Below are positions 1 to 4,766 of a DNA stretch of 4,766 nucleotides, piece after piece. The stretch is taken from positions 1-4,766 of IMG/VR virus record IMGVR_UViG_3300026367_000039; one strand, 5' to 3'. Source of the stretch: a virus. Taxonomy: Duplodnaviria; Heunggongvirae; Uroviricota; Caudoviricetes. A program made the translations under genes and the position numbers. Under the pieces are notes generated by a model that worked only from the letters and a program-made list of their open reading frames with translations, ran no database searches and was not told the origin of the DNA. The number at the start of each line of letters is the position of its first letter. Position 1 is the first letter of the stretch.

Positions 1-24
1 CAATTTGGTGCGATCATAAAGCCA

Positions 25-53
25 TGAAATTACTCAGAATTGCCTACGATAAT
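25..53 (+). promoter_or_regulatory. candidate promoter for the plus-strand gene pair (weak)
   Basis: Lower-GC leader with a GATAAT -10-like hexamer at 48-53 and a poor -35 (TGAAAT, 25-30) at 17-nt spacing. Speculative. Confidence 0.12.
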
Positions 54-113
54 CAGTGCGCTGGAGCGAATGACATCACACCCAAACGATGCAACTCACC
101 ACGGAGCCACCAC

Positions 114-515
114 ATGACCACGCACGCCATCCTGCCCAGCCGCAACGAGGACCACGGGTTCTTCGGCACCCTGACCGTCTGCCCCCAGCGCGACCGCCGT
201 AGCGCGGAGGTCTGGACGCTCGCATCGACCCTGATTGCCAAAGCCATCCACGCGAACAGCGAGGACGACATGATCGGGATCCGCGACTTCCTCGACAGCT
301 GCATGGGCCGTCAATTCGCCGATGATGTGGTCAGCAACCTGATGGGTTGCAGCCTCGAGCTCGAGACCGCCATCACCTCCGCGATCCGCCGCTGGCAGGA
401 CTGGCGCATCAGCCGCCAGACCCAACGCGACGAGGGCATCCCAGCAGGCCTGCCTTACTTGACCGGCTGGGTGCAGCACTTCGCTGTCGCCGCCGCGATG
501 GCCGAGAGCGAGTGA
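114..515 (+). CDS. hypothetical protein (133 aa from ATG 114; longest ORF begins at 24)
   Basis: Open frame with strong GC3 codon bias through to TGA at 513-515. ATG at 114 is preceded by GGAG (103-106) at 7-nt spacing, whereas the ATG at 24 lies in lower-GC sequence with no Shine-Dalgarno. No family recognised by eye. Confidence 0.5.
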   Translation: MTTHAILPSRNEDHGFFGTLTVCPQRDRRSAEVWTLASTLIAKAIHANSEDDMIGIRDFLDSCMGRQFADDVVSNLMGCSLELETAITSAIRRWQDWRISRQTQRDEGIPAGLPYLTGWVQHFAVAAAMAESE

Positions 516-551
516 TCATCCCCGACATCCCCATCACGACAGGAGGCACCA

Positions 552-1133
552 ATGCCCAAACTCACCGACACCCAGACCATCGTGCTCAGCCGCGCCGCAA
601 CGCGTCCGGGCAATCTTGCGATGCCGCTGCCAGATGGCCTGCACGGCGCCGCCGCCCAGAAGGCCGTGAGCGCGATGATCACGCGCGGCTGGCTGGAAGA
701 GGTCGAAGCCGACCTTCGGCGCGGCGAGCCGCTCTGGCGCGAGACTGGCGATGGTCACGGCACCACGCTGATCGCCACCGAAGCCGGGCTTGCCGCGATC
801 GGGATCGAGCCGGTGGTGGCGACCACGATGAGCAATCTGCGCAAGGCGAAGCTGGAACTGGCCCCGGAGTTGAAAGATGCGTCCGCAGCGCAGACTGATC
901 CTGCCACGCCCAAGCCCGTCGTCCTCCGCGCGGGCACCAAGCAGGCGCAGATCATCGCATTATTGCAGCGCCCCGAGGGCGCATCGATCGGTGAGATCGT
1001 CGCAGCGACCGGTTGGATGGCCCATAGCGCCCGTGGCCTGATCTCGGGCGGCTTGAAAAAGAAGCTGGGACTGCCGATCACTGCCGAGAAAGTCGATCAG
1101 CGCGGCACCGTGTACAAACTGGTTACGGCCTGA
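552..1133 (+). CDS. DUF3489-family protein (putative winged-helix-like DNA-binding protein typical of alphaproteobacterial mobile elements)
   Basis: ATG 552 preceded by a perfect AGGAGG (541-546) at 5-nt spacing. The C-terminal segment TKQAQIIALLQRPEGASIGEIVAATGWMAHSARGLISGGLKKKLGLPI matches my recollection of the DUF3489 signature (LL.R..GAT..EI..ATGW..HS.RG..SG...KK.GL). Strong GC3 bias. Confidence 0.8.
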   Translation: MPKLTDTQTIVLSRAATRPGNLAMPLPDGLHGAAAQKAVSAMITRGWLEEVEADLRRGEPLWRETGDGHGTTLIATEAGLAAIGIEPVVATTMSNLRKAKLELAPELKDASAAQTDPATPKPVVLRAGTKQAQIIALLQRPEGASIGEIVAATGWMAHSARGLISGGLKKKLGLPITAEKVDQRGTVYKLVTA

Positions 1134-1142
1134 TCCCAGCCA

Positions 1143-1355
1143 TTACCGCCAGCGCGCGAACAGTCTGCGCAGCGCGTAGCTGCGCAGCAGGGATATGCCG
1201 ACGAAAACTGCGCCCAGCGCAAGATTGTCACCAAGGCTCGGATGCAGACCGAACCACGGGAACACCACGATCTGCGTGGCGACGGCCAGCACATAGCCCA
1301 GCGCGACATTGCTCGCGGCCTCGATCAGAGACATGCGGCGCGACTGGGCAGTCAT
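1143..1355 (-). CDS. small (70 aa) predicted two-helix membrane protein, translationally coupled to the upstream methyltransferase
   Basis: Start ATG (1355..1353) overlaps the TGA stop of the upstream gene (1354..1352) as ATGA. A strong AGGAGG (reverse complement of 1364-1369) sits 8 nt upstream. Two hydrophobic stretches (ALGYVLAVATQIVVFPWFGL and LALGAVFVGISLL) and a basic C-terminus (RRLFARWR). High GC3. Confidence 0.55.
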   Translation of the reverse strand: MTAQSRRMSLIEAASNVALGYVLAVATQIVVFPWFGLHPSLGDNLALGAVFVGISLLRSYALRRLFARWR

Positions 1356-2725
1356 GCGCGTTTCCTCCTGCGACGCGCCGGGCTCTTGGCCTCAGTTGGT
1401 TCCGCGACACGGTTGGCTGTCCGTCCCGTCGCCAGTTCCCAGCGCCGCACGGCGACGTCGCAGTAAGCGGGGTCCAGTTCCATCGCAAAACACCTCCGCC
1501 CAGCACGTTCGGCGGCCACCAGCTGGGTGCCAGAGCCGCAGAACGGCTCGTAGATCAGGTCGCCCGGATCGGTGAACGCCGTCAGCACTGCTTCAACCAG
1601 CGCCACCGGAAACACTGCGGGATGCGATCCGGCCGCGCCCAGCCCGCCCTTGTGACGCATGATGCGGAACACGCTGTCTGGGATGCGATGACTCTGGATC
1701 GCATTGCCGAAGCCCGTCTTGCGATGGACCGCGCCATCCGCCCCGCGCAAACCCCCACCGCCGAGGATCTCGCCCGCGTGCTTGCTCTCGACCGTCTTGT
1801 GCGGTTTGCGGGGCGCGCGGTTGAAGTGGAAAATGAACTCGTGCGACGGGGCCAGTCGGCCGTTCCAATCGCCCGGCAGGCCGGGCCCCTGATCCCAGAC
1901 ATACCAGCCAAACCGTCGCCAGCCAGATGCGCGCATCCATTCCACCCATCCTTCCCAATAGGGCTGCCATTCGCTGTCGCGATGCACGAGGCCAAGGTTG
2001 ACCAGCAGCTGGGCATCGGCGCAGACCGGTGCGGCAGCGAACACGCCCTGCACCAGCGCATCCCAATCGCCGACCTTTTCCTTGGCCGCGCCGTAGTCGC
2101 GTTGCTGGGCGTAGGGCGGCGAGGTGAACATCAGCGTCGCCGCCTCATTCTGCATCAGCTTGGCGACGGCGGCGGGATCGGTCGCATCGCCACAGCAGAG
2201 CCGGTGCTTGCCCAGCGCCCAGATGTCGCCCGGACGCGTGATAGGTTCAGCGGGCGGTTCGGGGATGGCGTCGGCCGCATCGTCGGAAATCACCGGGCGG
2301 TCGTCGGCGTCTGCCAACAGCGCGTCCAGTTCATCCTCGGGGATCCCGATCAGCCCGAGGTCGAAATCCTCTGCCAGCAGCGCCTGCAATTCCTGCAACA
2401 GCAGCGCTTCGTCCCAGCCGCCCAGCTCGGTTAACTTATTGTCAGCGATGCGATAAGCCCGGCGCTGCGCCTCGGTCAGATGGCCAAGAATGATGACGGG
2501 GGCCTCGGTCAGCCCAAGGTGTGCAGCTGCCAGGACGCGACCGTGGCCTGCGATCAACTCGCCATCAGCCGCGACCAGCACCGGCACGGTCCAACCGAAC
2601 TCGGCCATGCTGGCGGCGATCTTCGCGACCTGATTTGCATCGTGGGTCTTGGCGTTGCGGGCGTAAGGCTTCAGACGGGCAAGGGGCCAGTGCTCGATCC
2701 GGCCCGGCAGGATGGGTGCGTTCAT
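1352..2725 (-). CDS. ParB-like N-terminal domain fused to a beta-class DNA methyltransferase, SPPY variant (possibly N4-cytosine); 457 aa
   Basis: N-terminus MNAPILPGRIEHWPLARLKPYARNAK...DGELIAGHGRVLAAA carries the ParB/Srx-fold G-H-x-R motif. Motif IV is TSPPY, followed by HPAVFP and then the AdoMet motif I EPFCGSGTQ, i.e. beta-class order IV before I. Start placed at ATG 2725 (not the longest-ORF ATG at 2860) because the paralog alignment begins there and it forms an ATGA overlap with the upstream gene's stop. Confidence 0.85.
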   Translation of the reverse strand: MNAPILPGRIEHWPLARLKPYARNAKTHDANQVAKIAASMAEFGWTVPVLVAADGELIAGHGRVLAAAHLGLTEAPVIILGHLTEAQRRAYRIADNKLTELGGWDEALLLQELQALLAEDFDLGLIGIPEDELDALLADADDRPVISDDAADAIPEPPAEPITRPGDIWALGKHRLCCGDATDPAAVAKLMQNEAATLMFTSPPYAQQRDYGAAKEKVGDWDALVQGVFAAAPVCADAQLLVNLGLVHRDSEWQPYWEGWVEWMRASGWRRFGWYVWDQGPGLPGDWNGRLAPSHEFIFHFNRAPRKPHKTVESKHAGEILGGGGLRGADGAVHRKTGFGNAIQSHRIPDSVFRIMRHKGGLGAAGSHPAVFPVALVEAVLTAFTDPGDLIYEPFCGSGTQLVAAERAGRRCFAMELDPAYCDVAVRRWELATGRTANRVAEPTEAKSPARRRRKRA

Positions 2726-3981
2726 GCCGCCAGCCTCTTCGCCTTCAGGTCGGCAAAAGTCTCGCCAGTCTCGACCAGCGCGGCATTGGCGCCGGTGAAC
2801 TGCTGCCAGCGCTCGATGGCGACATCGACGTAAGCCGGGTTCAATTCGATGCCGAAGCACACGCGCCCGGTGGTTTCCGCCGCGATCAGCGTTGTGCCGG
2901 ACCCCATGAAAGGTTCAAACACCGCCTGACCGGGGCTGGAGTTGTTCAGGATCGGCCGGCGCATGCATTCGACCGGCTTTTGCGTGCCGTGCACGGTGGC
3001 AGCGTCCTGATCCTTGCCGGAGATGTGCCACAGCGTGGTCTGTTTCCGGTCCCCGGCCCAGTGGCCCTTGCCGGTCTTCTTCACCGCGTACCAGCAGGGT
3101 TCATGCTGCCAGTGATAGTCGCCCCGGCTGAGAACCAGCCGGTCCTTTGCCCAGATGATCTGCGAGCGCACGTTGAAGCCTGCCGCCACCAGGCTTTCCG
3201 CGACGGTCGCCGCGTGCAGCGCGCCATGCCAGACGTAAGCCACGTCGCCTGGGAACAGCGCCCAAGCCTCGCGCCAATCCGCGCGGTCATCGTTCAGCAC
3301 CTTGCCTATGCGCTTGGTTTTGGCGGCCCCCGCCTGGTTGCGCCAGGATGGGTCATATTCCACGCCATAGGGCGGGTCCGTCACCATCAGCAGAGGGCGA
3401 ATATCGCCCAGCAATCGCCCGACCACATCCGCAGACGTGCTGTCGCCGCAGATCAGCCGGTGCGATCCCAGCTGCCAAAGGTCGCCCACAACCGACACCG
3501 GCGTGACCGGCGGTTCGGGAATGTCATCCTCTCCGTCGGCAGCGCCACCTTCCAACTGGTCCGGGTCGCGCAGCAATGCATCCAGATCCTCGTCGGTGAT
3601 GCCCAGCAGCGACAGGTCGAAATCGTCGGCGAGCAGTCCCGCGATCTCATCGCGCAGCATCGCCTCGTCCCACTCGCCCAGCTCGGTCAATTTGTTGTCC
3701 GCGATCCGGTAGGCGCGGCGCTCTGCCTCGTCGAGATGGCTGAGCCGGATCACCGGCACATCCTTCAGCCCCAGCATGGCGGCCGCCAGCACACGGCCAT
3801 GCCCCGCGATCAGCTCGCCATCGTCGGCCACCATGCAGGGCACTGTCCAGCCGAACTTTGCCATGCTTGCTGCGATCTTGGCAACCTGGTCGGTGCCGTG
3901 GATCTTGGCGTTGCGGGCATAGGGGCGCAGCCGGTCAATCGGCCACGTCTCGATCTGGCTCGGTGCAAAGACCAGGTCCAT
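2722..3981 (-). CDS. ParB-like N-terminal domain fused to a beta-class N6-adenine DNA methyltransferase (CcrM/HinfI-like motifs); 419 aa
   Basis: N-terminus MDLVFAPSQIETWPIDRLRPYARNAK...DGELIAGHGRVLAAA (ParB-like). Motif IV VTDPPYG, then HGTQKP and FEPFMGSGTT, matching the CcrM-type DPPY / TQKP / FxGxGTT pattern in beta-class order. Strong GC3 bias; TGA stop at 2724..2722. Confidence 0.9.
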   Translation of the reverse strand: MDLVFAPSQIETWPIDRLRPYARNAKIHGTDQVAKIAASMAKFGWTVPCMVADDGELIAGHGRVLAAAMLGLKDVPVIRLSHLDEAERRAYRIADNKLTELGEWDEAMLRDEIAGLLADDFDLSLLGITDEDLDALLRDPDQLEGGAADGEDDIPEPPVTPVSVVGDLWQLGSHRLICGDSTSADVVGRLLGDIRPLLMVTDPPYGVEYDPSWRNQAGAAKTKRIGKVLNDDRADWREAWALFPGDVAYVWHGALHAATVAESLVAAGFNVRSQIIWAKDRLVLSRGDYHWQHEPCWYAVKKTGKGHWAGDRKQTTLWHISGKDQDAATVHGTQKPVECMRRPILNNSSPGQAVFEPFMGSGTTLIAAETTGRVCFGIELNPAYVDVAIERWQQFTGANAALVETGETFADLKAKRLAA

Positions 3982-4105
3982 GGGCGGTTCTCATTTGGGC
4001 AGAGCGGGCATGCCAACGGGCGCGGGCAATATGGCCAGCGACAGGATCGGGATCCGCGATGTGGGGGAAAACGAAAGCGCCCGAGAGGGGTGTCATCCGG
4101 GCGCA

Positions 4106-4133
4106 ATTCTTCGATGATTAAGAGGTACGTCAA
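4106..4133 (-). promoter_or_regulatory. candidate sigma70-like promoter for the methyltransferase operon (weak)
   Basis: On the minus strand, TTGACG (reverse complement of 4128-4133), a 16-nt spacer, then AAGAAT (reverse complement of 4106-4111), about 120 nt upstream of ATG 3981. The -10 match is only 4/6, so this is a by-eye guess. Confidence 0.15.
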
Positions 4134-4220
4134 GGGGGCTAGAAATGTCAACCCATTTTATGACGTGGAATCAACGCGTTCTGCGGGTTCGGGGTTTGCG
4201 GGGAAAAGCCGGTGTCGCGA

Positions 4221-4270
4221 GTGGCTTTCCGGGGTGGCTTTCTGGCCAGCGTGGCTACCAAAAAGTGGCT
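4221..4270. repeat. array of four direct GTGGCT(T) repeats (iteron-like or operator-like)
   Basis: GTGGCT at 4221, 4234, 4251 and 4265 (GTGGCTTTCC, GTGGCTTTCT, GTGGCTACCA, GTGGCTTGCC), spaced 13, 17 and 14 bp. About 0.01 occurrences of one oriented hexamer are expected by chance in 50 bp. Confidence 0.6.
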
Positions 4271-4274
4271 TGCC

Positions 4275-4295
4275 TGGATTCCACCGAGGAATCCA
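4275..4295. repeat. perfect 8-bp inverted repeat TGGATTCC-N5-GGAATCCA (candidate dimeric protein-binding site)
   Basis: TGGATTCC (4275-4282) and GGAATCCA (4288-4295) are exact reverse complements around the spacer ACCGA. Each arm contains a GANTC site. It lies immediately after the GTGGCT array. Confidence 0.6.
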
Positions 4296-4351
4296 CTTAG
4301 CCAGAAGGGTGAGACCCTAAGCATTTGATAATGAGTCAAAATTCAGGGTCG

Positions 4352-4397
4352 AGCCACTGGCTTGGCTTCGAAGTGGATTCCCCGGTGAAAAAGCCAC
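4352..4397. repeat. two opposite-orientation copies of the GTGGCT motif flanking TGGCTT repeats and a third TGGATTCC
   Basis: AGCCAC (reverse complement of GTGGCT) at 4352-4357 and 4392-4397; TGGCTT at 4358-4363 and 4363-4368; TGGATTCC again at 4374-4381. Confidence 0.5.
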
Positions 4398-4421
4398 GCG
4401 CTAGCGAAATGCCGCGCTAAG

Positions 4422-4468
4422 CCCCCCCGTATACGGATAGGGCCGGGGAGGAACCATGCTGGGGGGGG
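4422..4468. other. C7 homopolymer, 10-bp perfect palindrome CCGTATACGG, and G8 homopolymer
   Basis: C-tract 4422-4428, palindrome 4427-4436, G-tract 4461-4468. The C and G tracts are complementary and could pair, or could act as slipped-strand tracts. Confidence 0.5.
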
Positions 4469-4486
4469 TCGTGTCGGTTCCGGCCC
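4440..4486. other. GC-rich imperfect hairpin (about 11 bp of stem, 20-nt loop)
   Basis: GGGCCG (4440-4445) pairs with CGGCCC (4481-4486) and GAACC (4451-4455) pairs with GGTTC (4476-4480). No downstream T-tract, so it is not a typical intrinsic terminator. Confidence 0.35.
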
Positions 4487-4535
4487 ATTGCTGCCTTTCG
4501 CCCACCCTCGGTTATGCTGCACTGCGGTCCGCCAT

Positions 4536-4613
4536 TGCGGACTTTCGCTGCAACTGCGAAATATGATGTATAGCGAATTCACAGAGTGCGGACAAAGTTA
4601 GCATTCGCTGCAA
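4536..4613. repeat. two-copy direct repeat module TGCGGAC ... TTCGCTGCAA
   Basis: TGCGGAC at 4536-4542 and 4587-4593; TTCGCTGCAA at 4544-4553 and 4604-4613. The first copy is embedded in the small inverted repeat TTCGC-N7-GCGAA (4544-4560). Confidence 0.5.
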
Positions 4614-4766
4614 GTGCCCCATTGGCTGCTTCGTTGGCGCGAGGGTTCAGTTCTCTGTTACTGTCAAAATCCAGTCTGTAATTTGATCAAGCGAGTGTTT
4701 GGCAAATGCTTTTCGTCCCATCCCCAAATAGATATATTGCAGGTACCAAGGCCATTGAGATGTGAG

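Follow-up and report, generated by a model that had tools for sequence, protein, structure and literature searches.

The window (the whole stretch of DNA analysed here, 4766 bp) carries two paralogous methyltransferase genes (MT1 and MT2), a DUF7220 gene and, on the opposite strand, a DUF3489 gene, while the segment upstream of MT1 is crowded with short repeats, GANTC sites and consensus-like regulatory elements (Table 1). The DUF7220 and DUF3489 genes meet tail to tail, with 9 bp between their stop codons. At the far end of the window, the upstream cargo gene has a lower G+C content (~0.50), runs in the same direction as the methyltransferase genes and shows no homology to relatives. The open reading frames located at 4145-4300 (forward strand), 4148-4339 and 4343-4582 (both reverse strand) had no Pfam match and were not counted as genes, because relatives show indels there (including a 32-nt gap). 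An Rfam search of positions 3900-4766 (E up to 10) returned only a chance miRNA match (17.5 bits, versus a gathering score of 105).

Table 1. Coordinates of genes, repeats, GANTC sites and putative regulatory elements in the window.
Feature	Position	Strand	Description
DUF3489 gene	552..1133	+	PF11994; predicted winged-helix protein
DUF7220 gene	1143..1355	-	last gene of the methyltransferase operon; PF23858, 4e-32
MT2	1352..2725	-	457 aa; MT1 paralogue, SPPY; ATG overlaps the MT1 stop (ATGA)
MT1	2722..3981	-	419 aa; ParB-like N-terminal domain and beta-class DNA methyltransferase, DPPY
Terminator-like element	4068..4104	-	G+C-rich hairpin (4077-4104), then TTTCGTTTT (4068-4076)
Promoter-like TTGACG-16 nt-AAGAAT	4106..4133	-	sole sigma-70-like match in 3900-4766
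TTGACA, -35-like	4146..4151	-	preceded by an A/T-rich stretch; consensus match only
GTGGMTTCC repeat array	4164..4397		reads GGAAKCCAC along the methyltransferase genes
GANTC site 1	4168..4172		GAATC; promoter-proximal
Perfect palindrome	4275..4295		8-bp arms, TGGATTCC-ACCGA-GGAATCCA (N5 spacer); two head-to-head repeat copies, both with GANTC
GANTC site 2	4277..4281		GATTC; left arm of palindrome
GANTC site 3	4289..4293		GAATC; right arm of palindrome
IHF consensus match	4318..4330	-	WATCAANNNNTTR (here TATCAAATGCTTA); mid-array
GANTC site 4	4333..4337		GAGTC; outside repeats, IHF consensus 2 bp away
GANTC site 5	4376..4380		GATTC; within repeat copy GTGGATTCC
Distal module	4398..4468		highly conserved; GCGCTAGCGAAATGCCGCGC ... 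C-run / GGGGAGGAACCAT / G-run
Upstream cargo gene, 3' end	4647..4766	-	39-codon open frame, stop 4647-4649, leaves the window

The relatives have MT1 and MT2 at 3-5 kb upstream of the genes for the small and large (gpA-type) terminase subunits, portal, S49 protease and capsid, which is the position described for ParB-Tls loci (in a phage genome, upstream of terminase genes); the window itself stops short of the terminase. Homology to relatives ends at the outer edge of the distal module (~4468), an edge shared by dozens of loci and past which the DNA is unrelated between them. In an annotated Roseicitreum relative the DNA beyond 4468 consists of cargo, after which the prophage's own early and replication genes follow, and the replication genes (with an HTH_36 initiator-like protein) are kilobases off, beyond the variable cargo. 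The idea that the edge marks a prophage end or attachment site was rejected, as the integrase is ~15 kb away and no tRNA gene was found.

The two enzymes share 42% identity overall, the similarity being concentrated mostly in the N-terminal ~190 residues. Both matched PF01555 (MT1: 2.2e-21, residues 198-389 of 419; MT2: 9.7e-20), phrog_498 (2.5e-154 and 7.8e-118, respectively) and the ParB-like phrog_620 (MT1: 1.7e-49, residues 8-150; MT2: 2.1e-50). They therefore combine an N-terminal ParB/Srx-like domain with an N6/N4 DNA methyltransferase, the architecture by which ParB-methyltransferase fusions are recognised. Matches to Spo0J and TIGR00180 were weak, the N-terminal domain covers only the nucleotide-binding part of ParB, and the domain searches of MT1 and MT2 detected no helix-turn-helix parS-binding domain. 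ParB-Tls loci and ParB-methyltransferase fusions of phages were described by Iyer et al. 2013 (as cited in PMC6536676), and 36 ParB-methyltransferase genes have been catalogued in Paracoccus prophages (PMC6536676).

An earlier note, made from the sequence of the window, had considered the methyltransferase downstream of the GANTC sites to be CcrM-like on account of its DPPY, TQKP and FxGSGTT motifs. These proved to be generic motifs of beta-class (PF01555) methyltransferases: the motif order (D/SPPY before FxGxG) and the PF01555 domain are common to the CcrM / M.HinfI family and to both MT1 and MT2, whereas on the CcrM equivalog model NF050803 (cut-off 830) the two enzymes reached only 49.0 (MT1) and 42.7 bits (MT2), at model positions 178-260 only. 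Their alignment to the CcrM structure 6pbd was likewise confined to 67-69 residues of the AdoMet-binding segment (MT1: 67 residues, E 1.7e-8), and the similarity to CcrM was limited overall to about 67-79 residues. In CcrM the methyltransferase core is followed by a non-specific DNA-binding domain at the C-terminus; MT1 ends ~30 residues past its PF01555 match, shows no match to that domain, and has a ParB-like domain at its N-terminus instead. The enzyme is therefore not specifically CcrM-like.

The five clustered GANTC sites, on the other hand, were all confirmed in the window sequence, and so was their excess over the roughly one expected (5 seen versus 0.77 predicted from composition in the 213 bp of 4168-4380). 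With a lone site at 1690 they account for all 6 GANTC of the window, versus 19.2 in dinucleotide shuffles of its entire length; positions 1-3981 hold 1, versus 12.7 predicted from composition. None of 15 other XYNY'X' patterns was concentrated likewise in 4140-4400. The placement of two sites in inverted-repeat arms also held, in two arrangements: sites 2 and 3 occupy the arms of the palindrome, and sites 3 and 5 belong to a 20-nt inverted repeat (4279-4298 / 4371-4390).

The cluster coincides with the GTGGMTTCC array, in which copies with at most one mismatch start at 4167(-), 4221, 4234, 4251, 4265, 4274, 4276(-), 4288(-) and 4373 (9 in the array versus 2 in the remaining 4.5 kb of the window), accompanied by weaker copies at 4362 and 4389(-). 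Among relatives, ~5.7 copies per locus were counted in the -500..0 interval and ~0 elsewhere within +-10 kb, and the control region totals about 10 copies of the 9-bp unit per locus. The degenerate position is almost always C (315 copies) or A (275), with G or T in 6. An A creates GATTC, whose A is the adenine methylated by CcrM, while the C version holds no GANTC; since the C version is equally common, we regard the primary feature as a repeat array, predicted to be protein-binding, rather than as a GANTC array. Palindromes of the 4275-4295 type were present in 37 of 80 regions, and in a collection-wide IMG/VR palindrome scan arrays around the palindrome occurred only beside MT1 homologues.

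As to the predicted binder, the consensus sequences of DnaA, CtrA, sigma-54 and alphaproteobacterial LexA had no match in the 80 regions, and no ORF family within +-10 kb tracked the array by co-occurrence (best p = 0.02-0.05, uncorrected). The DUF3489 protein is a structural candidate: its AlphaFold2 model (mean pLDDT 61, with residues 131-190 at 75-87) retrieved the winged helices of ArsR, MarR, MecI and ScpB in Foldseek with probabilities of 0.97-1.0 and an rmsd of 2.5-3.5 A over ~65 residues, at weak E-values (0.03-0.2).

The GANTC cluster is a conserved trait of this family of loci. The 79 distinct homologous upstream regions (from Rhodobacterales prophages) hold on average 6.2 GANTC per ~540 bp (range 2-11), and the background over all fetched related loci, flanks included, is 1.3 per kb; the related loci, all of them Rhodobacterales elements, are depleted 3-fold in GANTC. 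Strains represented in this set include Antarctobacter heliothermus DSM 11445, Loktanella fryxellensis DSM 16213, Rhodobacter sp. SW2 and Paracoccus species. Across 2.43 Mb of related loci, at least 5 GANTC within 213 bp were encountered as 75 clusters in this region and 2 outside the BLAST-defined region, both of the latter likewise just upstream of an MT1 homologue. The possibility raised in the earlier note, that GANTC density here might be no higher than in comparable intergenic regions, is thereby removed. Overall, more than 100 prophage loci of Rhodobacterales keep a cluster of 5-7 sites, and its link to the ParB-methyltransferase operon is exclusive.

Individual sites are also maintained, the counts over the 80 compared regions being those of related sequences and not of independent events. 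About 90% of regions have GANTC at the proximal site, ~80% and 50% have it in the two arms of the palindrome, and ~70% of the 80 aligned regions have it at the place of site 4, while the three repeat copies closest to the promoter are nearly always of the C version. The counterpart of site 1 lies 21 bp upstream of TTGACA, a distance fixed in 68 of 77 regions, and its G, A, T and C are each ~90% conserved, the N ~60% and the CCAC flank 50-70%. Just over half of all sites (275/495) fall within GTGGMTTCC repeats; the remaining 220, outside the canonical repeats, reach 5.3 per kb and are thus 4-fold enriched over the background. We discarded the notion that the cluster is a general trait of ParB-methyltransferase genes, as the enzyme of phage AmM-1 (53% identical) has no GANTC cluster upstream. 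The array is lacking in 13 related loci that keep the enzymes. In a stable group of related prophages unrelated DNA stands in its place; loci with this replacement retain one or two GANTC next to TTGACA, and some array-less variants have a GACTC inside the CTTGAC hexamer.

Between the array and MT1, the promoter-like elements are widely shared: TTGACA was found in 77/80 regions (~90% identity per base), AAGAAT in 67/80 and CTTGAC in 64/80. The predicted start site of the TTGACG-16 nt-AAGAAT element would be inside the 5' arm of the hairpin that follows, which lies between the promoter-like hexamers and the start of MT1. This hairpin is present in the minimum-energy and centroid folds alike, and all 35 sequences compared retain an 11-pair consensus stem followed by TTTCGTTTT or similar; covariation is nearly absent, as the bases themselves are conserved. 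With its G+C-rich stem and immediate T-run it is a putative intrinsic terminator, missed by a simple terminator scan because its loop exceeds the limit of the scan. In some loci the ATG comes only ~30 nt past the T-run, and the promoter therefore has to be upstream of the hairpin or over it. A ~50-nt small RNA that would run from the TTGACA promoter to the hairpin and pair with a target was considered as well and rejected, since in 166 loci nothing complementary to its conserved 5' part occurs outside the site itself.

The IHF consensus match sits in an 87-88 bp gap that separates two groups of repeats and whose size is kept in 67/80 regions. The strict consensus recurs at the same aligned place in 33/80 regions, compared with 0.2% of shuffled sequences, and by its agreement with WATCAANNNNTTR it qualifies as a putative binding site.

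We tentatively read this region as a protein-binding control element of the methyltransferase operon, the occupancy of which is probably sensitive to methylation by the host CcrM. The position of the cluster in the control region of a methyltransferase operon makes control through GANTC methylation a reasonable hypothesis, and the locus shares one feature with methylation-sensitive operators and epigenetic-switch regions, namely two or more sites of an orphan methylase in repeated, regulator-type DNA upstream of a promoter (here a consensus match). The earlier note had suggested that the operon could be governed by its own or the host's methylation; the part that stands is a cluster in the operon's control region that is conserved and above chance, while its link to the phage's own enzyme is weakened, this enzyme being no CcrM. 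The methylase acting on these sites is likely the host CcrM, because the relatives are all Rhodobacterales elements with a 3-fold depletion of GANTC; alphaproteobacteria generally carry CcrM (PMC5537653).

A mechanism consistent with these features can be outlined as follows. A ~320-bp control region (about 4146-4468) would front the three-gene operon (MT1, MT2, DUF7220) of a lambda-like temperate phage family widespread in Rhodobacterales. A sequence-specific DNA-binding protein, which might come from the host or from the phage (the winged-helix DUF3489 protein, for instance), would build a multi-site complex on the array with the help of IHF-induced bending, and this complex would determine how active the methyltransferase promoter is, so that the operon is silent in lysogens and permitted in lytic growth. 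Silencing in the lysogen would keep a potentially harmful DNA-modification operon off; M.EcoGII, a beta-class enzyme encoded by a prophage, is documented to be silent in lysogens and to do harm once expressed; it lacks a ParB domain and serves only as an example of this situation (PMC5778455). The sole degenerate repeat position takes A or C, the two bases that expose an amino group in the major groove. Given that the adenine of the A version is the CcrM target, about half of the binding sites may change their affinity, in whichever direction, with GANTC methylation, and the C versions would not. Occupancy, and through it expression of the operon, would then depend on the state of the DNA, a fully methylated resident prophage as opposed to newly replicated or injected DNA that is hemimethylated or unmethylated.

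The nearest rival retains the array as a real protein-binding control region and takes its binder to be indifferent to N6-methylation, so that GANTC would arise as a by-product of the A/C tolerance of the repeat. That the A form of the repeat by itself supplies more than half of the GANTC sites, the C form being slightly commoner, agrees with this view, as do the exchange of A and C forms at several copies between close relatives (expected if GANTC is neutral) and the nearly invariable C form of the three promoter-proximal copies. It accounts poorly, however, for the enrichment of GANTC outside the canonical repeats, for the proximal site, where the GANTC letters surpass the remainder of the 'repeat' in conservation and N is the variable position, and for the array-less variants, which retain a proximal GANTC. 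A passive six-site cluster is also less expected where GANTC is avoided 3-fold elsewhere in the loci, and we hold this explanation to be possible but on the unlikely side. We are considerably more doubtful that MT1 or MT2 itself methylates GANTC and controls its operon through its own upstream sites. MT1 is an adenine-type (DPPY) enzyme of the beta class, to which CcrM and M.HinfI belong, the cluster is linked exclusively to its operon, and alphaproteobacterial phages often encode GANTC-specific methyltransferases; those tested so far are nevertheless of an unrelated NPPY family (PMC5537653), both enzymes fall far below the CcrM model cut-off and align to CcrM over the AdoMet-binding segment only, the AmM-1 homologue does without upstream GANTC, and the specificity of the Paracoccus ParB-methyltransferases is reported as untested (PMC6536676).

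Three further readings assign the array a role in other processes. It might be a parS-like platform that recruits or nucleates the ParB-domain methyltransferases, with methylation of the A copies gating the loading. The strong ParB-like domain on both enzymes, the uniqueness of the array within +-10 kb and its constant neighbourhood to the methyltransferase genes speak in favour, and its repeats around an IHF site recall the layout of P1 parS. Set against this are the match to the nucleotide-binding part of ParB alone, with the parS-binding helix-turn-helix undetected, the 13 loci that keep the enzymes without the array, and the abutment of the array on promoter elements, a better fit to transcription control; we judge the platform improbable. 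ParB-like partners of phage DNA-modification enzymes have now been proven functional, with no cis site known (PMC13229309), and it is an equally long shot that the array is the first cis-acting site of such ParB-linked systems, serving as a parS-like platform for the ParB-domain methyltransferases or for a winged-helix adaptor (DUF3489) and gated by CcrM at its A copies. Were the platform to exist, the phage would sense from its own DNA the state of both methylation and replication and so time the switching on or loading of its modification enzymes, and lysogens could possess a heritable on/off epigenetic switch.

The earlier note had also entertained an origin region, and a phage replication origin that, like oriC or P1 oriR, combines iterons with methylation sites and an IHF site would indeed resemble the layout of some ten direct repeats, an IHF consensus and clustered methylation sites seen here; the repeat core ATCCAC resembles part of a DnaA box. 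Yet of the components of an iteron origin (DnaA boxes, an A/T-rich unwinding element, an adjoining initiator gene, indispensability) the repeats alone are present: the DnaA-box consensus occurs in 0/80 regions, the least G+C-rich 40-mer still has 37.5% G+C, the HTH_36 initiator-like gene is kilobases away across variable cargo, and the array is replaced in a stable group of prophages. An origin is thus disfavoured and very unlikely. Disfavoured too, and the least probable of all in our estimate, is a packaging site like P1 pac, at which methylation sites embedded in repeats, together with IHF, would govern terminase cleavage. Short repeats with methylation sites do flank the IHF match on both sides, as in P1 pac, and the ParB-methyltransferase genes belong to a block upstream of the terminase genes; A site of the P1 pac type, however, would be expected within or beside the small-terminase gene of a phage that packages by the headful, whereas here the large terminase belongs to the lambda gpA type (a cos user), the small-terminase gene is 3.5-4.5 kb off with opposite-strand genes in between and has a separate conserved A/T-rich region directly upstream, and relatives without the array exist. 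A virion DNA end (cos or pac) was rejected for this place, since the contig ends in the 1 kb upstream of MT1 are spread from 4101 to beyond 4540 without piling up, and assembly breaks in diverse DNA account for them better.

If the control region proposed here is methylation-sensitive, temperate phages of alphaproteobacteria would be sensing how far their own replication has gone through the cell-cycle methylase of the host, and a handle would be gained on the control of the very widespread, functionally obscure phage ParB-methyltransferase fusions. The natural A/C alternation offers a ready-made control, because the same binding site comes with and without a methylatable adenine.

Compared with known systems, the locus shares with ParB-Tls loci and PHROG 498 members the gene architecture and the place upstream of terminase genes. 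Descriptions of ParB-Tls concern the proteins, and in the literature searched here neither an upstream repeat array nor a GANTC cluster was described. In P1 pac, P1 parS and lambda cosB short repeats flank an IHF site, and the P1 pac repeats carry methylation sites. The likeness is that short repeats stand to either side of an IHF bend (here a consensus match); the locus differs in that its terminase is of the cos type, and in that the array is not beside the terminase genes, is dispensable in relatives and abuts promoter elements.

Methylation-controlled switches are represented by pap with Lrp/PapI and by agn43 with OxyR, and in alphaproteobacteria CcrM gives rise to a replication-linked hemimethylated state. 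To our knowledge, the examples known for CcrM and GANTC are single sites in cell-cycle promoters, and the CcrM-controlled promoters of Caulobacter described so far contain one or two GANTC near the core promoter, as opposed to the 200-300 bp repeat array found here. What these systems (among the CcrM-sensitive Caulobacter promoters, those of ccrM, ctrA P1, ftsZ and mipZ; PMC3708114) have in common with our reading is that methylation sites overlap regulator sites or promoter elements, with occupancy and methylation excluding or favouring each other.

The likeness to Mu mom consists of a cluster of host orphan-methylase sites in DNA that binds a protein (here by prediction) and precedes the promoter of a phage modification operon which has to be kept off in the lysogen, and may extend to a post-initiation layer, for which the putative leader hairpin would stand where Mu has Com-dependent translation. 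In the mom control region the Dam sites lie in the OxyR-binding region upstream of the phage DNA-modification gene. The two differ in methylase and scale: Mu mom has GATC (Dam), three sites in one operator and Mom, whereas the present locus, known from sequence alone, has GANTC (CcrM), ~10 repeats with an IHF consensus, and ParB-methyltransferase fusions. Clusters of orphan-methylase sites in regulator-binding DNA are the classic signature of methylation-dependent control in bacteria with Dam, as exemplified by Mu mom, pap, agn43 and P1 pac.

Six GANTC sites were found in the window, against 19.2 in dinucleotide-preserving shuffles; the coding part (1-3981) holds one where base composition predicts 12.7, and positions 4168-4380 hold five against 0.77 expected. 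The recomputed positions and excess bear out the earlier note, which had described a five-site cluster with two sites in inverted-repeat arms. A perfect palindrome (TGGATTCC-N5-GGAATCCA, 4275-4295) contains the sites at 4277 and 4289 in its arms, a 20-nt inverted repeat holds those at 4289 and 4376, and none of 15 other XYNY'X' patterns checked was likewise concentrated in 4140-4400.

Relatives numbered more than 550 in the genome collection and more than 550 in the viral collection (160 loci were fetched), and the window was 86% identical to its matches among plasmid and chromid records of Rhodobacterales. The 79 distinct homologous regions carried on average 6.2 GANTC (range 2-11), compared with 1.3 per kb over all loci, and among 250-bp bins spanning ±10 kb only the two upstream of MT1 (the first of two ParB-domain methyltransferase genes) stood out, with 4.4 and 1.8 sites per locus versus 0.0-0.55 elsewhere. 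Clusters of at least five GANTC in 213 bp (2.43 Mb scanned) occurred 75 times in the upstream region and twice outside, both likewise directly upstream of an MT1 homologue. A palindrome search across the entire viral collection gave 69 new loci: 25 had at least five copies of the repeat described below, of which 24 had an MT1 homologue 0.2-1.1 kb away (one stops at a contig edge), and the remaining 44 were lone palindromes on unrelated contigs, about the number expected by chance (rough estimate). Hence, the array is exclusive to the methyltransferase operon.

Most of the sites lie within a repeat that reads GTGGMTTCC on the plus strand and GGAAKCCAC in the direction of the methyltransferase genes. 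With up to one mismatch allowed, nine copies fall in 4164-4381 and two in the other 4.5 kb of the window; in relatives, core copies amount to ~5.7 per locus upstream of MT1 and are essentially absent elsewhere within ±10 kb. The degenerate position M is C in 315 copies, A in 275, and G or T in 6. Only A and C present an exocyclic amino group in the major groove, and a protein contact to this group would explain the pattern. When M is A the repeat reads GATTC, with M as the very adenine methylated in GANTC, whereas the C form lacks the motif. Canonical M=A repeats account for 275 of 495 GANTC sites (80 regions); the other 220 are in degenerate copies or outside repeats (5.3 per kb, i.e. four times background), and ~108 of them show no repeat similarity past GANTC itself.

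Genes and control-region features (control region listed in the sense of MT1 transcription, from distal (4468) to proximal, on the basis of aligned homologous regions)
Feature	Position	Strand	Remarks
PHROG-8020 gene	114-515	plus	converges on methyltransferase genes
DUF3489 gene	552-1133	plus	converges on methyltransferase genes
DUF7220 gene	1143-1355	minus	
MT2	1352-2725	minus	457 aa; ATG overlaps MT1 stop
MT1	2722-3981	minus	419 aa
GANTC sites	1690, 4168, 4277, 4289, 4333, 4376		motif scan, whole window
Distal module	4468-4398		~70 bp, very conserved (about 90% or more); C-run and G-run
Two repeat copies			proximal to distal module
Non-repeat GANTC			after the two repeat copies; about 70% of regions
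IHF consensus TATCAAAKGCTTR	4330-4318		strict consensus at same aligned place in 33/80 regions vs 0.2% of shuffles
Degenerate repeat copy			between IHF consensus and palindrome
Head-to-head palindrome			arms with GANTC in about 80% and about 50% of regions
Several direct copies			spacing 9, 11, 14 or 15 bp; three almost always C form
Proximal GANTC			21 bp upstream of TTGACA in 68/77 regions
TTGACA			77/80 regions; A/T-rich stretch before it
TTGACG-N16-AAGAAT			consensus match; sole sigma-70-like match in region
11-bp G+C-rich hairpin + TTTCGTTTT	4104-4068		kept in 35/35 sequences
Spacer			~85 nt, hairpin/T-run to MT1 ATG

The distal module (C-run, ATGGTTCCTCCCCGGCCC, GTATRCGGGGGGGC and AGCGCGGCATTTCGCTAGCG) marks the edge of homology and in some loci (L023, L064, L135) lies 1-2 kb from MT1, apart from the remaining array; its TGGTTCCTCCCCGG resembles the first repeat in inverted, degenerate form. 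The IHF consensus falls in an 87-88 bp gap separating the repeat groups. The proximal GANTC has about 90% conservation at each of its fixed letters (G, A, T, C), with N and the adjoining 'repeat' letters variable. Compared with the Roseicitreum and Paracoccus relatives and the 80-sequence consensus, the window has ~32 additional bases (4176-4219) between this site and the next repeat copy, which places the site further from the remaining array. Since the ATG is found just ~30 nt past the T-run in three loci, the MT1 promoter must lie upstream of, or overlap, the hairpin. A start site set by the AAGAAT hexamer would lie within the hairpin's 5' arm; RNA begun there could evade termination, with read-through from the cargo genes being stopped. 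The strongly conserved CTTGATCATCGAAGAATTGCGCCCGG (4068-4133, minus) leads into this terminator-like hairpin ~85 nt ahead of the MT1 start, and the two together could be an attenuator, an insulator against cargo read-through or a short leader RNA (a search of 166 loci for the complement of the conserved stretch found no target).

The intergenic region is about 70% identical to relatives as far as ~4468, beyond which sequences are unrelated; this edge is common to dozens of loci. The DNA past it has a lower G+C and consists of hypervariable cargo, with type ISP and type I restriction components, DUF262, UvrD-like helicase-nuclease and twin-arginine-signal genes; it is an insertion hotspot that separates the replication genes from the methyltransferase operon. 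In the window-specific DNA from the cargo gene to this edge, two short direct repeats occur (4485-4617), CCATTGCKGMCTTTCGC (4485, 4532) and TTCGCTGCAASTGC (4544, 4604). About 30 of the 160 fetched loci are metagenomic or draft contigs ending at scattered points within or at the edge of 3960-4540 (450-bp region), probably assembly breaks from strain diversity and multiple prophage copies. Among 44 distinct loci that align only partly with the window, several have other DNA in place of the array, either a divergent gene whose product has a twin-arginine signal peptide (L008, L028, L030, L097) or a host-like dehydrogenase gene (L064, L075, L083). These loci keep the promoter and hairpin block together with one or two GANTC (e.g. 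TTGAATCCCATTGATTCCGC, ~20 bp upstream of TTGACA; in other variants GACTC lies within a CTTGAC hexamer), which indicates that the array is dispensable for the prophage and that the promoter-adjacent GANTC is retained.

In Roseicitreum, the integrase, early and replication genes are followed by restriction/defence-type cargo, the GANTC region, MT1, MT2 and one small gene, then by six small opposite-strand genes (the DUF3489 gene last), and finally by small terminase, gpA-type large terminase, portal, S49 protease, decoration protein and capsid protein genes. The same 'ParB-Tls' arrangement has been catalogued for 36 Paracoccus prophage genes (PMC6536676). One Rhodobacteraceae genome (JAHRYM010000001.1, 2.29-2.43 Mb; L010, L015, L028) carries three prophage-module copies in ~140 kb, and several others (Rhodobacter sp. 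SW2, Antarctobacter heliothermus, Roseovarius sp. MBR-78) carry two. In one contig (L236) a PIN / PhdYeFM toxin-antitoxin pair has been inserted (6892-7535), separating the small from the large terminase gene; this contig also encodes a DUF3489 protein identical to that of the window.

In both MT1 and MT2 an N-terminal ParB-like domain (phrog_620, E about 1e-49) precedes a PF01555 methyltransferase; the two are 42% identical overall, with the similarity mostly in the N-terminal ~190 residues. These translationally overlapping tandem paralogues differ in catalytic motif (DPPY in MT1, SPPY in MT2), the DPPY one being of the adenine type and the SPPY one nearest to N4-cytosine enzymes. The variable base of the repeat is A or C, the same two bases that enzymes of these types methylate, a match that may be coincidence.

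A unique, multi-copy and oriented array with a central IHF consensus, directly abutted promoter elements of a single operon, dispensability and a fixed proximal methylation site together are best fitted by a transcription-control nucleoprotein complex. GANTC is three-fold depleted in the loci, as would fit a host that carries CcrM. CcrM is active only late in the cell cycle, leaving replicated DNA hemimethylated for a time; consequently full methylation would prevail in a prophage and under-methylation in phage DNA that replicates rapidly, and a binder contacting the M amino group would have about half of its sites responding to the difference. Tight control of the operon would have a reason, as M.EcoGII, a prophage beta-class methyltransferase, is silent in the lysogen and harmful if expressed (PMC5778455). 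We tentatively favour an operon control array whose binding responds to CcrM methylation, its role as a protein-binding control array being more secure than its methylation sensitivity.

As for the binder, none of the gene families within ±10 kb follows the presence of the array. The DUF3489 protein (homologues: >4700 at E up to 1e-5) has a predicted C-terminal winged helix (AlphaFold2 pLDDT 75-87 in the domain) with Foldseek matches to ArsR, MarR, MecI and ScpB winged helices (probability 0.97-1.0, rmsd 2.5-3.5 Å over ~65 residues, E only 0.03-0.2), and its N-terminal half may contain a second domain of this kind. It is also present in 11 of 13 array-less loci, and by its predicted fold is no more than a candidate for the repeat binder.

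That the array is functional and indifferent to methylation, with its GANTC sites a by-product, seems to us somewhat less likely than a methylation-responsive array. Autoregulation through a GANTC-specific phage enzyme is improbable: the earlier note had called the enzyme CcrM-like, but with the NCBIfam CcrM equivalog model (cut-off 830) MT1 reaches 49 bits and MT2 43 bits, only 67 residues of MT1 align with CcrM (6pbd, E 1.7e-8), and the two are not CcrM. The best solved relatives of MT1 are other beta-class enzymes, those nearest MT2 are a Thermus enzyme and N4-cytosine enzymes, the characterised phage GANTC methyltransferases form an unrelated NPPY family (PMC5537653), and the region upstream of the ParB-methyltransferase of Aurantimonas phage AmM-1 (53% identical) lacks GANTC. 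We give similarly little credence to a parS-like loading platform for the ParB-domain enzymes, topical as it is since recent work showed phage DNA-modification enzymes to be activated by ParB-like partners, for which a cis site is not yet known (PMC13229309).

A replication origin is very improbable, as neither DnaA boxes nor a strongly A/T-rich element were found, the initiator gene is distant and the array is dispensable. A packaging site is the least probable, given a cos-type gpA terminase, a distance of 3.5-4.5 kb to the small-terminase gene, contig ends that do not pile up at one point, and a separate conserved A/T-rich region directly upstream of that gene. The latter (L004-L163; ~130 bp upstream, ~+4.4 kb from the MT1 start) has a hairpin GTTGCATCGTTTTCTTGCAAC and the highly conserved CCAGAATCGCTC, with another GANTC, and is likely the site of cos and of divergent promoters.

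ParB-methyltransferase genes have already been described (PMC6536676). An upstream repeat array or GANTC cluster for them was not described in the literature searched. In the mom system of phage Mu, the DNA ahead of the modification gene is bound by a regulator and contains sites of a host orphan methylase (Dam); a control array responding to CcrM would follow the same principle with GANTC in place of Dam sites, and what is unusual here is the ten-copy array and the natural alternation of A and C at the methylated base.
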